Sequence record: MZ234035.1
DNA from: Escherichia phage vB_EcoM-G3F7
Length of the DNA stretch: 64,000 bases
Strand: one strand, 5' to 3'
Part shown: positions 2,184 to 29,355 of the stretch, in pieces
Layout of the letters: every line of letters begins with the position of its first letter
How positions within the stretch are numbered: position 1 is the first letter of the stretch
The notes under the pieces: model-generated
What the model saw: only the letters and a program-made list of their open reading frames with translations
Database searches by the model: none
Told to the model about the DNA's origin: nothing
Position numbers and translations under genes: made by a program

Positions 2184-3212
2184 ATGTCATCAATACCTTG
2201 GATTGATAATGAGTTTGCATACCGTGCATTAGCTCATTTACCTAAATTCACACAAGTAAATAATAGTTCAACTTTTAAATTACGGTTTAGATGCCCAGTT
2301 TGTGGAGATTCAAAAACCGACCAGAATAAAGCCCGTGGATGGTATTATGGTGATAATAATGAAGGAAATATTCATTGTTATAACTGTAACTATCATGCAC
2401 CAATCGGAATATATTTAAAGGAGTTTGAACCTGATTTATATCGTGAGTATATCTTTGAAATAAGAAAAGAAAAAGGTAAAAGTCGTCCAGTAGAAAAACC
2501 TAAAGAACTTCCTAAACAACCTGAGAAGAAAATAATTAAATCTCTTCCGTCATGTGTTAGATTAGATAAACTGGCGGAAGACCATCCAATTATAAAATAT
2601 GTAAAAGCTCGTTGTATTCCAAAGGATAAATGGAAATATCTTTGGTTTACAACCGAATGGCCTAAATTAGTTAATAGCATAGCACCGGGAACATATAAAA
2701 AGGAAATTTCTGAGCCTCGTCTTGTTATTCCAATTTATAATGCTAATGGAAAAGCTGAGTCTTTTCAAGGACGCGCATTAAAGAAAGATGCTCCTCAAAA
2801 ATATATCACCATCAAAGCTTATCCTGAAGCAACAAAAATTTATGGAGTCGAACGAGTTAAAGATGGTGATGTATATGTTCTAGAAGGACCTATAGATTCA
2901 CTTTTTATTGAAAATGGTATAGCTATTACGGGTGGTCAATTAGACCTAGAAGTTGTTCCATTTAAAGATAGACGAGTGTGGGTTTTAGATAATGAACCTC
3001 GTCACCCTGACACTATTAAACGAATGACTAAATTAGTTGATGCAGGAGAAAGGGTTATGTTTTGGGATAAATCTCCCTGGAAATCAAAAGATGTTAATGA
3101 TATGATTAGAAAGGAAGGTGCAACCACTGAACAAATTATGGAATATATGAAAAATAATATTGCCCAGGGGTTAATGGCTAAAATGCGGCTATCTAAATAT
3201 GCTAAGATTTAA
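2184..3212 (+). CDS. 61: DNA primase gp61
   Basis: 342 aa, zinc-ribbon CPVCGDS...CYNC plus TOPRIM-like region; matches T4 gp61 as recalled. Confidence 0.93.
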   Translation: MSSIPWIDNEFAYRALAHLPKFTQVNNSSTFKLRFRCPVCGDSKTDQNKARGWYYGDNNEGNIHCYNCNYHAPIGIYLKEFEPDLYREYIFEIRKEKGKSRPVEKPKELPKQPEKKIIKSLPSCVRLDKLAEDHPIIKYVKARCIPKDKWKYLWFTTEWPKLVNSIAPGTYKKEISEPRLVIPIYNANGKAESFQGRALKKDAPQKYITIKAYPEATKIYGVERVKDGDVYVLEGPIDSLFIENGIAITGGQLDLEVVPFKDRRVWVLDNEPRHPDTIKRMTKLVDAGERVMFWDKSPWKSKDVNDMIRKEGATTEQIMEYMKNNIAQGLMAKMRLSKYAKI

Positions 3213-3409
3213 ATTAACCCAACTAAAGCAAATGCTAAATCTACGAATGTATCAAGAGTAACTACTGGAATACTAACGCCATGAGCAATAGCAACTGGCG
3301 ATAAAACAAAATTCCAAAGTAAAATTCCTATCATAGCAGTAATAGTAAAAGCTATACGTTTCTTATTACCTTTTATGGCATTAACAAGTGCCATTAATTT
3401 TTGTACCAT
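3209..3409 (-). CDS. Hypothetical small membrane protein, antisense to the early gene block
   Basis: 66-aa hydrophobic ORF; ATG at 3409 preceded on the minus strand by AAGGAGG with a 4-nt spacer; its stop overlaps the gene 61 stop tail-to-tail. Confidence 0.4.
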   Translation of the reverse strand: MVQKLMALVNAIKGNKKRIAFTITAMIGILLWNFVLSPVAIAHGVSIPVVTLDTFVDLAFALVGLI

Positions 3410-3421
3410 ATGTCCTCCTTA

Positions 3422-3446
3422 TTGCTTTATATATTTATTGTATAAT
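3422..3446 (+). promoter_or_regulatory. Candidate MotA-dependent middle promoter upstream of gene 56
   Basis: MotA-box-like TTGCTTTA at 3422-3429, 11-nt gap, TATAAT at 3441-3446. Confidence 0.4.
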
Positions 3447-3482
3447 TAATCTACTAACCCATGAATTGAAAGGAAAAATAAC

Positions 3483-3998
3483 ATGCCACATTTCAACGAA
3501 TGTAGTCAACTGATCGAAGGCGCTGATAAAGCTCAAAATGAATATTGGGATATTCTCGGTGATGAAAAAGACCCGCTGCAGGTAATGCTTGATATGCAGA
3601 AATCTTTACAGATTCGTTTAGCAAATGACCGCGAATACTGTTATCATCCAGATAAATTAGAAACTGCCGGTGATGTTGTTTCTTGGATGCGTGAACAAAA
3701 AGACTGTATTGATGATGAATTCCGCGAACTTCTGACTTCTCTTGGTGAAATGTCACGTGGTGAAAAAGATGCATCGGCAGTTTGGAAAAAATGGAAAGCA
3801 CGTTATATTGAAGCGCAAGAAAAACGCATTGATGAAATGTCCCCAGAAGATCAGCTCGAAATTAAATTTGAGCTTGTGGATATATTTCATTTCGTATTAA
3901 ATATGTTTGCTGGCCTTGGAATGAATGCGGAAGAAATCTTTAAACTTTATTATTTGAAAAATAAACATAATTTTGAACGTCAAGATAATGGGTATTAA
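3483..3998 (+). CDS. 56: dCTPase/dCTP pyrophosphatase gp56 (MazG-like)
   Basis: 171 aa MPHFNECSQLIEGADKAQNEYWDILGDEKDPLQVMLDMQ...; near-identical to T4 gp56 as recalled. Confidence 0.93.
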   Translation: MPHFNECSQLIEGADKAQNEYWDILGDEKDPLQVMLDMQKSLQIRLANDREYCYHPDKLETAGDVVSWMREQKDCIDDEFRELLTSLGEMSRGEKDASAVWKKWKARYIEAQEKRIDEMSPEDQLEIKFELVDIFHFVLNMFAGLGMNAEEIFKLYYLKNKHNFERQDNGY

Positions 3999-4695: not shown

Positions 4696-4941
4696 ATGGC
4701 TAGTACTCGCGGTTATGTTAATATTAAAACATTTGAGCAGAAATTAGATGGAAATAAGAAAATTGAAGGAAAGGAAATTTCTGTAGCTTTCCCTCTTTAT
4801 TCTGACGTTCACAAAATTTCTGGTGCTCATTACCAGACGTTCCCTTCAGAAAAAGCAGCATATACTACTGTATATGAAGAAAATCAGCGTACTGAATGGA
4901 TTGCTGCAAACGAAGATTTGTGGAAAGTAACTGGTGGTTAA
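4696..4941 (+). CDS. soc: Small outer capsid protein Soc
   Basis: 81-codon ORF MASTRGYVNIKTFEQKLDGNKKIEGKEISVAFPLYSDVHKISGAHYQTFPSEKAAY...; matches T4 Soc as recalled. Confidence 0.93.
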   Translation: MASTRGYVNIKTFEQKLDGNKKIEGKEISVAFPLYSDVHKISGAHYQTFPSEKAAYTTVYEENQRTEWIAANEDLWKVTGG

Positions 4942-15316: not shown

Positions 15317-15577
15317 ATGAAATATATTAATCGTTCTATCGCGGCATTAGTATTAGCAGTGTCTTTAGTAGGATGTACTGATGCTGATAATGCAACCAAA
15401 GTTTTGTCTTCAAGCGGTTTTACTAATATTGAAATCACTGGATATAACTGGTTCGGTTGTTCTGAAAATGATTTCCAACATACTGGATTTCGTGCTATTG
15501 GACCTACTGGGCAGAAAGTAGAAGGAACAGTATGTTCTGGGCTGTTCTTTAAGGATTCAACTATTCGTTTTAAATAA
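15317..15577 (+). CDS. Putative lipoprotein (signal peptide with lipobox LVGC)
   Basis: Track ORF 15308..15577 starts GTG; ATG at 15317 gives MKYINRSIAALVLAVSLVGCTD... Confidence 0.45.
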   Translation: MKYINRSIAALVLAVSLVGCTDADNATKVLSSSGFTNIEITGYNWFGCSENDFQHTGFRAIGPTGQKVEGTVCSGLFFKDSTIRFK

Positions 15578-15646: not shown

Positions 15647-17464
15647 ATGATTAAGAATGAAATTAAAATTCTGAGCGATATTGAACATATCAAAAAGCGT
15701 AGCGGCATGTACATTGGCTCTTCTGCTAATGAAATGCATGAGCGCTTTCTGTTTGGTAAATGGGAAAGTGTTCAGTATGTACCTGGTCTTGTTAAGCTTA
15801 TTGATGAAATTATCGATAACTCAGTAGATGAAGGTATTCGTACTAAGTTTAAATTCGCAAATAAAATTAATGTTACTATTAAAAACAATCAAGTAACAGT
15901 TGAAGATAACGGTCGTGGTATTCCACAAGCGATGGTTAAAACACCTACCGGTGAAGAAATTCCTGGTCCAGTTGCTGCATGGACTATTCCAAAAGCGGGT
16001 GGTAACTTCGGTGATGATAAAGAACGCGTCACCGGCGGTATGAATGGTGTTGGTTCTAGTTTGACAAACATTTTTTCTGTGATGTTTGTCGGTGAAACTG
16101 GTGATGGTCAAAATAATATTGTAGTTCGTTGTTCAAATGGCATGGAAAATAAATCATGGGAAGATATTCCTGGAAAATGGAAAGGAACTCGTGTTACTTT
16201 CATTCCAGATTTTATGTCATTTGAAACTAATGAATTATCTCAAGTTTATCTTGACATTACACTAGATCGTCTCCAGACACTTGCTGTTGTTTATCCTGAT
16301 ATTCAATTTACCTTTAATGGTAAAAAGGTTCAGGGCAATTTTAAGAAATATGCACGACAGTATGATGAACATGCTATCGTTCAAGAACAAGAAAATTGTT
16401 CTATTGCGGTTGGTCGTTCACCCGACGGTTTTCGTCAATTAACATACGTCAATAACATTCATACTAAGAATGGTGGCCATCACATTGACTGTGTTATGGA
16501 TGATATTTGTGAAGACCTTATTCCACAAATCAAACGCAAGTTCAAAATTGATGTAACTAAAGCACGCGTTAAAGAATGTTTGACTATCGTTATGTTTGTT
16601 CGTGATATGAAAAACATGCGATTTGATTCTCAAACTAAAGAGCGTTTGACTTCTCCATTTGGTGAAATCCGTAGTCATATTCAGCTTGATGCTAAAAAGA
16701 TTTCACGTGCTATTTTGAATAATGAAGCAATTCTGATGCCAATTATTGAAGCTGCTTTGGCTCGTAAATTGGCGGCAGAAAAAGCAGCAGAAACTAAAGC
16801 AGCTAAAAAGGCATCTAAAGCTAAGGTTCATAAACATATCAAAGCGAATCTTTGTGGTAAAGATGCTGATACTACATTGTTCTTGACTGAGGGTGATTCT
16901 GCTATCGGATATCTTATTGATGTTCGTAATAAAGAACTTCATGGTGGTTATCCATTACGTGGTAAAGTTCTCAACAGTTGGGGTATGTCATATGCTGATA
17001 TGCTTAAAAACAAAGAACTATTTGATATTTGCGCAATCACTGGATTAGTTCTTGGTGAAAAAGCTGAAAACTTGAATTATCATAATATTGCTATTATGAC
17101 TGATGCTGACCATGATGGTCTAGGAAGCATTTATCCTTCTCTGCTTGGATTTTTTAGTAATTGGCCAGAACTGTTTGAGCAAGGAAGAATTCGCTTCGTC
17201 AAAACTCCTGTAATCATCGCTCAGGTCGGTAAAAAACAAGAATGGTTTTATACAGTCGCTGAATATGAGAGTGCCAAAGATGCTCTACCTAAACATAGCA
17301 TCCGTTATATTAAAGGACTTGGCTCTTTGGAAAAATCTGAATATCGTGAGATGATTCAAAACCCAGTATATGATGTTGTTAAACTTCCTGAGAACTGGAA
17401 AGAGCTTTTTGAAATGCTCATGGGAGATAATGCTGACCTTCGTAAAGAATGGATGAGCCAGTAG
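15647..17464 (+). CDS. 39: DNA topoisomerase II large (ATPase, GyrB-like) subunit, uninterrupted 39+60-type fusion
   Basis: 605 aa from ATG 15647 (track ORF starts at GTG 15644); GHKL ATPase plus TOPRIM region in a single ORF. Confidence 0.9.
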   Translation: MIKNEIKILSDIEHIKKRSGMYIGSSANEMHERFLFGKWESVQYVPGLVKLIDEIIDNSVDEGIRTKFKFANKINVTIKNNQVTVEDNGRGIPQAMVKTPTGEEIPGPVAAWTIPKAGGNFGDDKERVTGGMNGVGSSLTNIFSVMFVGETGDGQNNIVVRCSNGMENKSWEDIPGKWKGTRVTFIPDFMSFETNELSQVYLDITLDRLQTLAVVYPDIQFTFNGKKVQGNFKKYARQYDEHAIVQEQENCSIAVGRSPDGFRQLTYVNNIHTKNGGHHIDCVMDDICEDLIPQIKRKFKIDVTKARVKECLTIVMFVRDMKNMRFDSQTKERLTSPFGEIRSHIQLDAKKISRAILNNEAILMPIIEAALARKLAAEKAAETKAAKKASKAKVHKHIKANLCGKDADTTLFLTEGDSAIGYLIDVRNKELHGGYPLRGKVLNSWGMSYADMLKNKELFDICAITGLVLGEKAENLNYHNIAIMTDADHDGLGSIYPSLLGFFSNWPELFEQGRIRFVKTPVIIAQVGKKQEWFYTVAEYESAKDALPKHSIRYIKGLGSLEKSEYREMIQNPVYDVVKLPENWKELFEMLMGDNADLRKEWMSQ

Positions 17465-17493
17465 TTTACTTTACCACAAGGATGTGGTATAAT
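17464..17493 (+). promoter_or_regulatory. T4-type early promoter
   Basis: GTTTAC 17464-17469, 18-nt spacer, TATAAT 17488-17493. Confidence 0.5.
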
Positions 17494-17518
17494 TAATTGG
17501 GCAAATGAGGATATTGAA

Positions 17519-17722
17519 ATGAAATCATATAAAGTAAATTTAGAACTTTTTGATAAAGCAGTTCATCGAGAATATAGAATCATTCAACGCTTTTTCGATA
17601 TGGGAGAAGCTGAAGAGTTTAAAAACCGCTTTAAGGATATTAGAGATAAAATTCAATCCGACACCGCAACTAAAGATGAACTACTAGAAGTTGCTGAAGT
17701 TATTAAACGCAATATGAATTAA
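17519..17722 (+). CDS. Hypothetical protein (rIIA.1 position)
   Basis: 67 aa, ATG with GAGGA SD. Confidence 0.5.
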
Positions 17723-17732
17723 TGAGGAAATT

Positions 17733-19910
17733 ATGATTATCACCACTGAAAAAGAAACAATTCTTGGTAATGGTTCTAAATCAAAAGCATTTAGCATCAC
17801 AGCATCTCCTAAAGTATTTAAAATTCTATCATCTGATTTGTACACAAACAAGATTCGCGCAGTAGTCCGTGAATTGATTACCAACATGATTGATGCCCAT
17901 GCTCTCAATGGAAATCCTGAAAAATTTATCATTCAAGTTCCTGGACGTTTAGACCCACGATTTGTTTGTCGAGATTTTGGTCCGGGTATGAGTGATTTTG
18001 ATATTCAGGGTGATGATAATTCTCCTGGGTTGTATAATTCATACTTCAGTTCATCTAAAGCTGAATCTAATGACTTTATTGGCGGATTTGGTTTAGGTTC
18101 TAAATCTCCGTTTAGTTATACTGATACGTTTAGTATTACTTCGTATCATAAAGGTGAAATTCGTGGTTATGTAGCTTACATGGATGGTGATGGCCCACAG
18201 ATTAAACCTACATTCGTAAAAGAAATGGGTCCAGATGATAAAACTGGTATTGAAATCGTAGTTCCAGTTGAAGAAAAAGACTTTAGAAACTTTGCTTATG
18301 AAGTTTCTTATATCATGCGACCATTCAAAGATTTGGCTATCATTAATGGTCTTGACCGCGAAATTGATTATTTTCCGGATTTTGATGATTATTACGGCAT
18401 AAATCCAGAAAGATACTGGCCTGATCGTGGTGGATTATATGCTATCTATGGCGGTATTGTTTATCCTATCGATGGTGTTATTAAAGACCGTAACTGGCTA
18501 AGCATTCGTAATGAAGTGAATTACATTAAGTTTCCAATGGGTTCGCTTGATATTGCTCCATCACGCGAAGCTCTTTCACTAGATGATCGTACTCGTAAAA
18601 ATATTATTGAACGAGTTAAAGAACTCAGTGAGAAAGCATTTAATGAAGATGTAAAACGATTTAAAGAATCTACATCTCCTCGTCACACATATCGTGAATT
18701 GATGAAGATGGGATATTCTGCTCGAGATTATATGATTAGTAATTCAGTCAAATTCACGACTAAAAATCTGTCATATAAAAAGATGCAGAGCATGTTTGAA
18801 CCTGACAATAAGTTATGTAATGCAGGAGTTGTGTATGAAGTAAATCTTGATCCTCGACTGAAGCGCATTAAGCAAAGTCATGAAACTTCAGCCGTTGCAT
18901 CAAGTTATCGTCTGTTTGGTATTAATACAACAAAAATTAATATCGTTATTGATAATATTAAAAATCGTGTTAATATTGTTCGTGGATTAGCACGAGCGTT
19001 AGATGATAGTGAATTTAATAACACTTTGAATATTCATCATAATGAGCGTCTTCTGTTTATTAATCCAGAAGTAGAATCGCAGATTGATTTGCTTCCTGAT
19101 ATTATGGCGATGTTTGAAAGTGATGAAGTTAACATTCATTATTTGTCAGAAATTGAAGCTTTAGTTAAAAGCTATATTCCAAAGGTAGTTAAAAGTAAAG
19201 CTCCTCGTCCTAAAGCTGCTACAGCATTTAAGTTTGAAATTAAAGACGGGCGCTGGGAAAAAGAGGAATTATTTACGCTCACATCAGAAGCAGATGAAAT
19301 TACTGGGTATGTAGCGTATATGCATCGTTCTGATATTTTCTCTATGGATGGTACTACATCTCTTTGTCATCCATCTATGAATATTTTGATTCGTATGGCT
19401 AATCTTATTGGCATTAATGAGTTTTATGTTATTCGTCCGCTTTTGCAGAAAAAGGTAAAAGAACTCGGTCAGTGCCAATGTATTTTTGAAACTCTGCGTG
19501 ATTTATATGTAGATGCTTTTGATGATGTAGATTATGATAAGTACGTAGGTTATTCAAGTTCAGCTCAACGATATATTGATAAAATTATCAAGTATCCTGA
19601 ACTAGATTTTATGATGAAGTACTTCAGTACAGATGAAGTTTCTGAAGAATATACACGACTCGCTAATATAGTTAGTTCATTGCGCGGTGTATATTTTAAT
19701 GGTGGAAAAGATACCATCGGTCATGATATCTGGACAGTAACTAATCTTTTTGATGTATTATCAAATAATGCTTCAAAAAACAGTGATAAAATGGTTGCTG
19801 AGTTTACCAAGAAATTCCGTATTGTTTCCGACTTCATCGGATATCGCAACTCTTTAAGTGATGATGAAGTTTCCCAAATCGCTAAAACTATGAAGGCCCT
19901 TGCGGCCTAA
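17733..19910 (+). CDS. rIIA: rIIA membrane-associated protein
   Basis: 725 aa, [20 protein letters not shown]...; matches T4 rIIA as recalled. Confidence 0.93.
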
Positions 19911-28665: not shown

Positions 28666-29322
28666 TTATTTAGCCCTTCCTAATATTCTGGCCGCCTGAG
28701 CACATATTGATTCAAGGCGGTCATTACTTATATGATCATTTCTATACCAGTACATGGTTATTGTTCCAGCATAGATATTATCCAAATTAAAATATGGACA
28801 ACTGTACATGTAGTTTATTTCGGGAGTAGGCTTTTTAGTTGGTAAAAAAGCAAATTTTGAGTCGGAATAATAATGACGTCCATTTAAATGAACTGTATAT
28901 TCATCCATAGTTTTATCAACAGGATATCCTCCAAGTGATTTTTCACTTATTGTTGAAGGTAATTTTCCTTCATATGCTATAATATCAACAAAATAGTTTA
29001 AGTTTTTAGGGCGGAAAGAATACACCGCACTAAAGTCTGCCTCAGATGATATATGAACTATCTGGAGTTGTTCCAGGGCGACAGATTCAAAGCGTGCATT
29101 TCTTTCCTTTTCAATAATTTCACTGTATGTTTCATACTTTGATTGCTTATAGTACTCAAAGAAACTATCTCCCCTATACCAAACAATCGCCATCATAAAT
29201 AAAAGAATTACGACAGCTACCCGGGAAGCAAGAACTTTCCCGGTAGCGTTATCTTTGAACAAGCGATCTAGAACACCAAACAGAATACCAGAGGGCGAAA
29301 ATGATATTCTAGGTGCTGCCAT
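28666..29322 (-). CDS. t: Holin T
   Basis: 218 aa with N-terminal TMD and large periplasmic domain; matches T4 T as recalled; AGGAGGG SD. Confidence 0.9.
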   Translation of the reverse strand: MAAPRISFSPSGILFGVLDRLFKDNATGKVLASRVAVVILLFMMAIVWYRGDSFFEYYKQSKYETYSEIIEKERNARFESVALEQLQIVHISSEADFSAVYSFRPKNLNYFVDIIAYEGKLPSTISEKSLGGYPVDKTMDEYTVHLNGRHYYSDSKFAFLPTKKPTPEINYMYSCPYFNLDNIYAGTITMYWYRNDHISNDRLESICAQAARILGRAK

Positions 29323-29355
29323 AGACCCTCCTTTTAAGGGTATTTATTCACATTA

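Follow-up and report, generated by a model that had tools for sequence, protein, structure and literature searches.

The gene described here belongs to phrog_2024, a family of small phage proteins that is annotated in phage RB69 as RB69ORF029w and carries the note ‘dam.1’ in phage RB33 (RB33/RB32-type genomes). The RB69 protein has one TMHMM-predicted transmembrane span, residues 21–41, and no predicted signal peptide (Nolan et al., PMC1524935 supplement). Among proteins with described functions, the product of our gene would share its small size, inner-membrane location and apparently late synthesis with the T4 holin T, the class II holins and the antiholins (S21, RI). The T4 superinfection exclusion proteins Imm and Sp are likewise small envelope proteins of T-even phages. 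The type I toxin peptides Hok, Ldr and TisB are small and hydrophobic and are made from the strand complementary to another transcript.

We analysed a stretch of 64,000 nucleotides of Escherichia phage vB_EcoM-G3F7 (MZ234035.1), called the window in what follows, and focused on the interval between the genes for DNA primase (61) and dCTPase (56). The window belongs to a Tequatrovirus, its + strand gene order is that of T4 (Table 1), and its positions 3100–3600 match Escherichia phage vB_EcoM-CHD94UKE2 (MZ234031, species ‘gee4498’) with 100% identity. Both ends of the window continue exactly into the flanking sequence of this record. Within the gap between genes 61 and 56, which measures exactly 270 bp, the initial annotation had reported a 66-codon antisense ORF with an AAGGAGG Shine–Dalgarno sequence and a stop codon that overlaps the gene 61 stop tail to tail, and all of these features were confirmed in the sequence. 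The ATG occupies positions 3409–3407 and the TAA positions 3211–3209 of the minus strand, and the two genes share 4 nt where this stop codon meets the gene 61 TAA at 3210–3212. The translated product reads MVQKLMALVNAIKGNKKRIAFTITAMIGILLWNFVLSPVAIAHGVSIPVVTLDTFVDLAFALVGLI. In length, position and orientation, this small gene does not differ from the other members of the phrog_2024 family.

Table 1 Features of the gene 61–56 region in window coordinates.
Feature	Position	Strand	Basis and remarks
Gene 41		+	Truncated at the window edge
dmd	1211–1393	+
61.4	Between dmd and sp	+
sp	1711–2004	+
61.1	2017–2181	+
Gene 61, DNA primase, 342 aa	2184–3212	+	Convergent with the small gene; 99% identity to T4 gp61
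Small gene, 66 codons, predicted small membrane protein	3209–3409	−	ORF, translation, phrog_2024 match
Terminator-like hairpin ATGGCAttaacaagTGCCAT followed by TAATTTTTGT	3375–3404	+	Terminator scan; 3′ of gene 61
Shine–Dalgarno sequence AAGGAGG	3414–3420	−	4 nt upstream of the small gene ATG; read from the sequence
dam insertion site	3421–3440		In T4-type phages an 899-bp dam cassette replaces these 20 nt; blastn break-points
Putative gene 56 middle promoter: ATTGCTTTA, 11 nt, TATAAT	3421–3446	+	Read from the sequence
AATAAATA, variant of the T4 late-promoter (gp55) −10 motif	3432–3439	−	Conserved position; putative promoter
Second insertion site	3468–3474		In fPS-2-type phages a 642-bp HNH/NUMOD3 homing-endonuclease gene; break-points, annotation
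Gene 56, dCTPase, 171 aa	3483–3998	+	Divergent from the small gene; 95% identity to T4 gp56
segF	Between 56 and soc	+
soc	4696–4941	+

The length of the small ORF is not significant by itself, as the first 7 kb of the window contain 65 ORFs of at least 30 amino acids. Since such a length is unremarkable in AT-rich DNA, the case for a gene depends on comparison with relatives. A tblastn search found the protein in 692 phage records (all record counts refer to the GenBank phage collection), in 685 of them at full length, and about 190 of the 692, including those of Mosigvirus and Gaprivervirus, are only 45–56% identical to the window protein. In close pairs, the pairwise Nei–Gojobori dN/dS ratio is 0.07–0.20 (window–T4, 0.20; window–fPS-2, 0.07; JK42–RB69, 0.10). 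Between genera, synonymous sites are saturated and the proteins can still be aligned end to end. A GGAGG-type ribosome-binding site is retained in the other lineages inspected, with the exception of the downstream copy of a tandem pair in phage VR26 (VR26b), which has GGTGG. The comparison shows that the small gene is protein-coding and under purifying selection.

The window protein matches the phrog_2024 profile over residues 2–66 (E 2.4e-30), as do 12 of 12 diverse relatives, and family members are 61–74 amino acids long. A second subtype is exemplified by JS98 (Dhakavirus), in which a 66-codon ORF occupies the same place (NC_010105, 15343–15543), and is found in 140 further records (Klebsiella phages, Gelderlandvirus, Kanagawavirus, Moonvirus and Enterobacter phages); the tandem copies of VR26 represent both subtypes (A+B). 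The two subtypes of the small gene together account for about 830 phage records, which represent at least nine genera of Tevenvirinae. At every individually examined locus it lies on the gene 56 side of the primase gene and is convergent with it, an arrangement that holds for Tequatro-, Mosig-, Gapriver-, Dhaka-, Gelderland-, Kanagawa- and Moonvirus, for a Klebsiella phage and for two metagenomic lineages.

Searches of Pfam and NCBIfam, a PDB sequence search, and Foldseek comparisons with PDB and BFVD identified no relative outside the family; the sole PDB match, NqrE (E 0.06), was rejected as a hydrophobic-segment artefact. A profile search of 1.84 billion representatives returned six clusters, all of them obvious family members or fragments, and scans of IMG/VR returned no loci with the family alignment, none with a divergent member and five with the window protein. 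A family HMM search of the genome found no paralog. We conclude that this is a genuine single-copy gene that is conserved across Tevenvirinae and corresponds to dam.1, RB69ORF029w and phrog_2024.

The gene is already annotated as a conserved hypothetical gene. The window protein is 100% identical to CHD94UKE2_069, an annotated hypothetical protein of MZ234031, and most newer genomes list the small gene in the same way. An antisense membrane-protein gene at this place had at first been considered unusual; it is a hypothetical gene annotated in hundreds of genomes. T4 contains an intact 66-codon copy with 92% identity (NC_000866, 17738–17938, + strand), which is unannotated and sits in a 309-bp unannotated gap between dam (16846–17625) and gene 61 (17935–18963); it is likewise unannotated in a second T4 record, MT984581, as is the JS98 ORF. 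The literature on RB69ORF029w and dam.1, on T4 ribosome profiling, on small ORFs and on 5′-end mapping that we searched contains no mention of the gene. The reference annotations of T4 (NC_000866 and MT984581) and JS98 hence lack a conserved gene that is under selection, and the main value of the present finding lies in curation.

The second peculiarity of the interval, its lack of a dam methyltransferase gene, has a separate explanation. The premise of the initial annotation, that T4 carries dam between genes 61 and 56, agrees with the T4 map, and its statement that no methyltransferase-like ORF is present was borne out: a tblastn search with T4 Dam of the window and the remaining 104 kb of MZ234031 gave no match with an E value better than 1.0. 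Its description of the interval as shortened and occupied by a peculiar ORF does not hold, because T4 has the intact small ORF beside dam and the dam-less form is the commoner one. Only 184 phage records contain T4-type dam DNA, compared to about 500 Tequatrovirus records with the small gene; about two-thirds of the Tequatrovirus records are without it. The short form without dam is that of RB69, JK42, VR26, JS98 and most Tequatroviruses, and its presence in the first four suggests that it is probably the ancestral state.

The blastn break-points of the dam cassette (window 3420/3441; T4 locus L001, 3726/2826) place it between the ribosome-binding site of the small gene and the −10 element of the gene 56 promoter. 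The insert of fPS-2 at the second site, which corresponds to window 3474/3475, matches Pfam NUMOD3 and the phrog_655 homing-endonuclease profile. When the interval is compared across T-even genomes, as had been suggested at the outset, the small ORF is shared and dam is variable. We also considered the small ORF as a replacement for dam and rejected this, as T4 carries both. That dam is missing here reflects a cassette polymorphism that is common, separate from the small gene and without special meaning.

The product of the small gene was described as hydrophobic in the initial annotation, and its hydropathy indeed peaks at residues 19–41 with a Kyte–Doolittle value of 2.0. A second, weaker hydrophobic stretch (Kyte–Doolittle 1.86) comprises residues 45–66, so that the topology would be either a single span or a hairpin. 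All five lysine and arginine residues of the protein are located N-terminal to the first span and none on its C-terminal side; by the positive-inside rule this distribution predicts a cytoplasmic N-terminus. The C-terminal 25 residues are hydrophobic and contain no lysine or arginine and two aspartates. In the AlphaFold2 model (pLDDT 77.6), helices are formed by residues 2–12, 16–42 and 52–63, and both aspartates are found in the short hydrophobic C-terminal helix. The protein is thus predicted to reside in the inner membrane with its basic N-terminus in the cytoplasm.

The family alignment contains the invariant motif W32-N33-x4-P38-x5-G44-x3-P48-x-V50. Sequence varies in the N-terminal half of the span, and the invariant residues map onto its predicted periplasmic end and the loop that follows. 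This pattern suggests that a specific contact may be made at the periplasmic end.

In T4, early and middle transcripts all have one polarity and only late transcripts use either strand (PMC2988020). The small gene is on the strand opposite to genes 41, 61 and 56, which is the strand of holin gene t, and should thus be a late gene. The initial annotation had stated that the gene would need a promoter of its own, possibly a late one, and such a candidate is present upstream in the form of the AATAAATA box, with a predicted transcription start near position 3426 and a leader of about 17 nt. A scan for σ70 promoters found none upstream of the ORF on the minus strand.

The more general motif NATAAATA is present 23–30 nt upstream of the ATG in 9 of 12 lineages in which the surrounding sequence has otherwise diverged. 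The box reads AATAAATA in the window, fPS-2 and RB33, in RB69 and JK42, in JS98 and in the metagenomic lineage L018; it reads CATAAATA before the first VR26 copy and in PEi20, ATTAAATA in CGG4-1 and CF1, and is a perfect TATAAATA in Klebsiella phage Biddle. In T4 and T2 the box is GATAAATA, which comes from the dam cassette and keeps the distance to the small gene; in T4 it has a G at −13. A second metagenomic lineage (L021) has no box. Both strands of the 64-kb window contain 17 NATAAATA sites, or 1.3e-4 per position, which gives a chance of about 0.0016 for an occurrence in a slot of 12 positions.

The box had initially been regarded as imperfect. Among 50 listed T4 late sites, however, 32 are perfect TATAAATA and nine have an A at −13, the commonest variant (PMC2988020), and most T4-like phages have A or T at this position (Nolan et al.). 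AATAAATA is thus the commonest natural variant rather than a poor site, and in the window it also precedes holin gene t (28666–29322, minus strand; Pfam Phage_holin_T, E 1e-116), 19 nt before the ATG. Against a late promoter, the late-promoter HMM of Nolan et al. called no site before RB69ORF029w; the G at −13 in T4, the ATTAAATA of CGG4-1 and CF1 and the lack of a box in L021 also speak against it. On balance, strand and motif point strongly to transcription that would occur only late in infection, by the gp55 RNA polymerase, from AATAAATA at 3439–3432.

The reading that we favor, with a probability of roughly 70%, is that the small gene is a conserved Tevenvirinae gene for an accessory inner-membrane protein made late in infection, and that the absence of dam is unrelated to it. 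In the model that we propose, the gp55 RNA polymerase would transcribe the gene late from the AATAAATA box. The product would insert into the inner membrane with a cytoplasmic N-terminus, would bind a membrane partner through the conserved segment where the span reaches the periplasm, and would tune an envelope event at the end of infection. Such a protein would probably be among the few T-even membrane proteins that are made only late in infection.

The accessory nature of the gene is suggested by a transposon screen, HIDEN-SEQ (bioRxiv 10.1101/2025.11.20.689424). There, the Bas37 gene bas37_0144 (201 nt, 91945–92145, + strand) overlaps the primase gene by 4 nt and is the presumed ortholog by size, strand and this overlap, not by sequence. 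The screen recovered insertions at 20 of its 24 TA sites and assigned it to the Non-essential class; in three of about six host comparisons, its log2 fold changes are 0.33, 0.20 and −0.28, all with q = 1. From these data we infer that the small gene is accessory and not essential. The T4 gene table of HIDEN-SEQ jumps from dam to 61 (bioRxiv 10.1101/2025.11.20.689424), as does the T4 guide table of CRISPRi-ART (PMC11879866), because the T4 copy is missing from the T4 annotation; it was therefore left unscored in both genome-wide screens. The gene offers itself as an inexpensive knock-out target.

As to the specific envelope event, we rank a role in holin-dependent lysis timing or lysis inhibition as the most likely, ahead of a host-specific envelope or defense interaction, and offer it as a tentative best guess of low probability. 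In its favor, the gene would encode a late-made membrane protein like holin T, lies on the same strand as holin gene t and shares its AATAAATA promoter variant. The product is small, is predicted to have at least one transmembrane domain and, like class II holins, has two adjacent hydrophobic stretches. One database entry, the UniProt record of the OE5505 ortholog, is labeled ‘Holin’; this name was given by the depositor or automatically, no similarity supports it, and we discarded it as evidence. Against a role in lysis, no lysis gene adjoins the small gene and transposon insertions in the presumed ortholog are tolerated.

The gene product is unlikely to be a holin itself. It has no sequence or fold similarity to any holin, and where holins end in a hydrophilic, highly charged C-terminal domain, its C-terminus is hydrophobic and the charged part is N-terminal. 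Holin genes are linked to endolysin and spanin genes, whereas the small gene is flanked by those for primase and dCTPase. Finally, holins are required for lysis, but the presumed ortholog tolerates insertions and the phage has a full T holin. We rejected a holin identity on these four counts, namely the charged C-terminus, linkage to lysis genes, homology and requirement.

In its broadest form, the proposal would be that essentially all Tevenvirinae possess an overlooked late regulator in the inner membrane that acts on lysis timing, on lysis inhibition or on a different envelope step, which we consider unlikely. If true, a regulator would have been overlooked in T4 for decades, its 66 codons left out of the reference annotation and never scored in genome-wide T4 screens.

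The foremost alternative, unlikely in our estimate, is a role in host range, exclusion or anti-defense, in which a host inner-membrane protein, for example a membrane-anchored defense effector, a protease or a transporter, would be neutralized or occupied by the phage protein. Accessory genes collect in the 61–56 interval, where dam, a homing-endonuclease gene and a nuclease-like ORF occur, the small gene is non-essential on K-12, and the family, with no more than six clusters in the 1.84 billion representatives searched, is limited to Tevenvirinae that infect enterobacteria. The existence of two subtypes, and their tandem A+B arrangement in VR26, is a pattern typical of arms-race genes. Unlike typical accessory cargo, however, the small gene has a constant position and is almost universal among the genera. 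Furthermore, late expression fits anti-defense poorly, and the three host comparisons considered from HIDEN-SEQ show no significant change in fitness. Of the known exclusion genes, sp lies only 1.2 kb away, but both imm and sp are on the early strand and the small gene is on the late strand. The family HMM found nothing else in the genome, and the protein thus has no sequence similarity to Imm or Sp.

Far less probable is that a late antisense RNA and not the protein matters, with the late RNA polymerase shutting off expression of genes 61 and 56 or origin priming. The idea draws on the arrangement of signals on the + strand. We read the site at 3421–3446 as a putative MotA-box promoter by the consensus of T4 middle promoters, fPS-2 annotates the equivalent site as a ‘predicted middle promoter’, and in the T4 record the primer transcript of oriA is assigned to the promoter of gene 56. 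The minus-strand late box falls within the spacer of this promoter, and a search of the 3.2 kb beyond the ORF detected no minus-strand terminator, so that late transcripts would extend antisense into gene 61, possibly as a side effect. However, dN/dS of 0.07–0.2, the invariant W, N, P, G, P and V residues and the strong ribosome-binding site all indicate that it is the protein that is selected. In T4 and T2, moreover, the dam cassette parts the late box from the gene 56 promoter and the gene is still kept. An antisense effect could be secondary to the role of the protein.

The small gene resembles those of the type I toxins in that it is likewise complementary to another transcript, namely the 3′ end of the gene 61 mRNA. 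To our knowledge, there is no homology between them, and no dedicated antisense small RNA is evident at this locus.

The terminator-like hairpin downstream of gene 61 (3375–3394, with a T-rich tail to 3404) lies within approximately codons 2–12 of the minus-strand gene. The terminator scan that identified it found two sites against 0.4 expected, and in fPS-2 a terminator is annotated at the corresponding position. The hairpin is not conserved in RB69 or JS98, and we therefore rejected the gene 61 terminator as the cause of conservation. As the hairpin is not conserved outside Tequatrovirus, the conserved thing is the protein.

The remaining explanation, that the ORF is spurious and the interval a regulatory spacer that contains nothing but the terminator of gene 61 and the promoter of gene 56, could point to the many chance ORFs of similar size in AT-rich T4 DNA, to the absence of the gene from the T4 and JS98 RefSeq annotations and to the actual presence of a terminator and a promoter, but it is refuted by the comparative data: a frame open in about 830 records across genera with saturated synonymous sites, dN/dS far below 1, a conserved ribosome-binding site, and a protein that is conserved in RB69 and JS98, where the terminator is missing.

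T-even phages pack their signals tightly, as is seen at the 61–56 locus. Here, 26 bp carry a putative middle promoter on one strand and, within its spacer, a putative late promoter on the other. Cargo is inserted at two separate sites within 73 bp, and a terminator-like hairpin is written into coding sequence.

The small gene (phrog_2024) is a conserved 66-codon ORF, on the minus strand in the window, that converges on the primase gene 61; neither T4 nor JS98 has it annotated in RefSeq. In IME08, VR7, F48, PEi20 and others, the tblastn match to it likewise has no annotated feature beneath. The Gaprivervirus VR26 carries a tandem pair, one copy of each of the two subtypes, spaced by 8 nt. The second copy lacks a promoter box of its own and, therefore, judging by this arrangement, the pair is probably co-transcribed. 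The ECCR664 ortholog is frameshifted at an A-run (AATAAAAGAAAA), which represents either a pseudogene or a sequencing error; the length of the ECCR664 record is only 134 kb. Upstream of the holin gene t, the late box is present as the variant AATAAATA in place of the perfect TATAAATA.

Coordinates of the features discussed in the text (L-numbers denote DNA loci)
Feature	Locus	Equivalent position	Strand
Small gene, T4	L001 3739-3939	T4 17738-17938	
Small gene, JS98	L025 3344-3544	JS98 15343-15543	
Small-gene copies, VR26	L004 1995-2192 and 2201-2401		
Frameshifted ortholog, ECCR664	L005 1950-2150		
Late-box variant ahead of t	Window 29341-29348		minus
ORF abutting dam	L011 1841-2401		minus
ORF abutting dam, T2	L024 865-1410		
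HNH/NUMOD3 homing endonuclease, fPS-2	L006 1881-2531	Insertion at window 3474/3475	
CHD94UKE2_025	MZ234031 12506-12628 (L012, L014 for all three)		opposite surrounding early genes
CHD94UKE2_241	MZ234031 150155-150268		opposite surrounding early genes
CHD94UKE2_242	MZ234031 150273-150377		opposite surrounding early genes

In T2 and some other Tequatroviruses, dam is directly preceded by an abutting ORF of 181-186 amino acids, a member of phrog_8706. This ORF contains a PD-(D/E)xK-like motif (FDIVIS...EIK), and its Pfam match to DpnII, a GATC-specific restriction endonuclease, is sub-threshold (E 0.0045, 16.8 bits vs a cut-off of 23). Its product may act as a nuclease alongside Dam, as a partner. 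T4 has no counterpart of the ORF at the site upstream of dam, and a 61-aa ORF occupying the same place in Bas37 (bas37_0143) is possibly a remnant, matched by its position.

With expected tetramer counts derived from trinucleotide counts, GATC occurs 217 times vs 570 expected (ratio 0.38) in the one dam-less genome that comprises the window and the remainder of MZ234031 (L012-L014). Among the palindromic tetramers of this genome, GATC is avoided most by far, the second lowest being TCGA (0.71).

Many relatives (fPS-2, WL-3, G4498, IME340 and others) encode a 216-aa HNH/NUMOD3 homing endonuclease with the gene 56 middle promoter on one side and gene 56 on the other. This position constitutes a second cargo site, separated by 35 bp from the dam site. 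Elsewhere in the window, sp and 61.1 are 12 nt apart (2005-2016), and the T4 gene 61.2 (208 amino acids) is absent between them. Three further very small annotated ORFs of MZ234031 (CHD94UKE2_025, _241 and _242), which run on the other strand from the early genes around them, could be additional late-strand mini-genes or over-calls.
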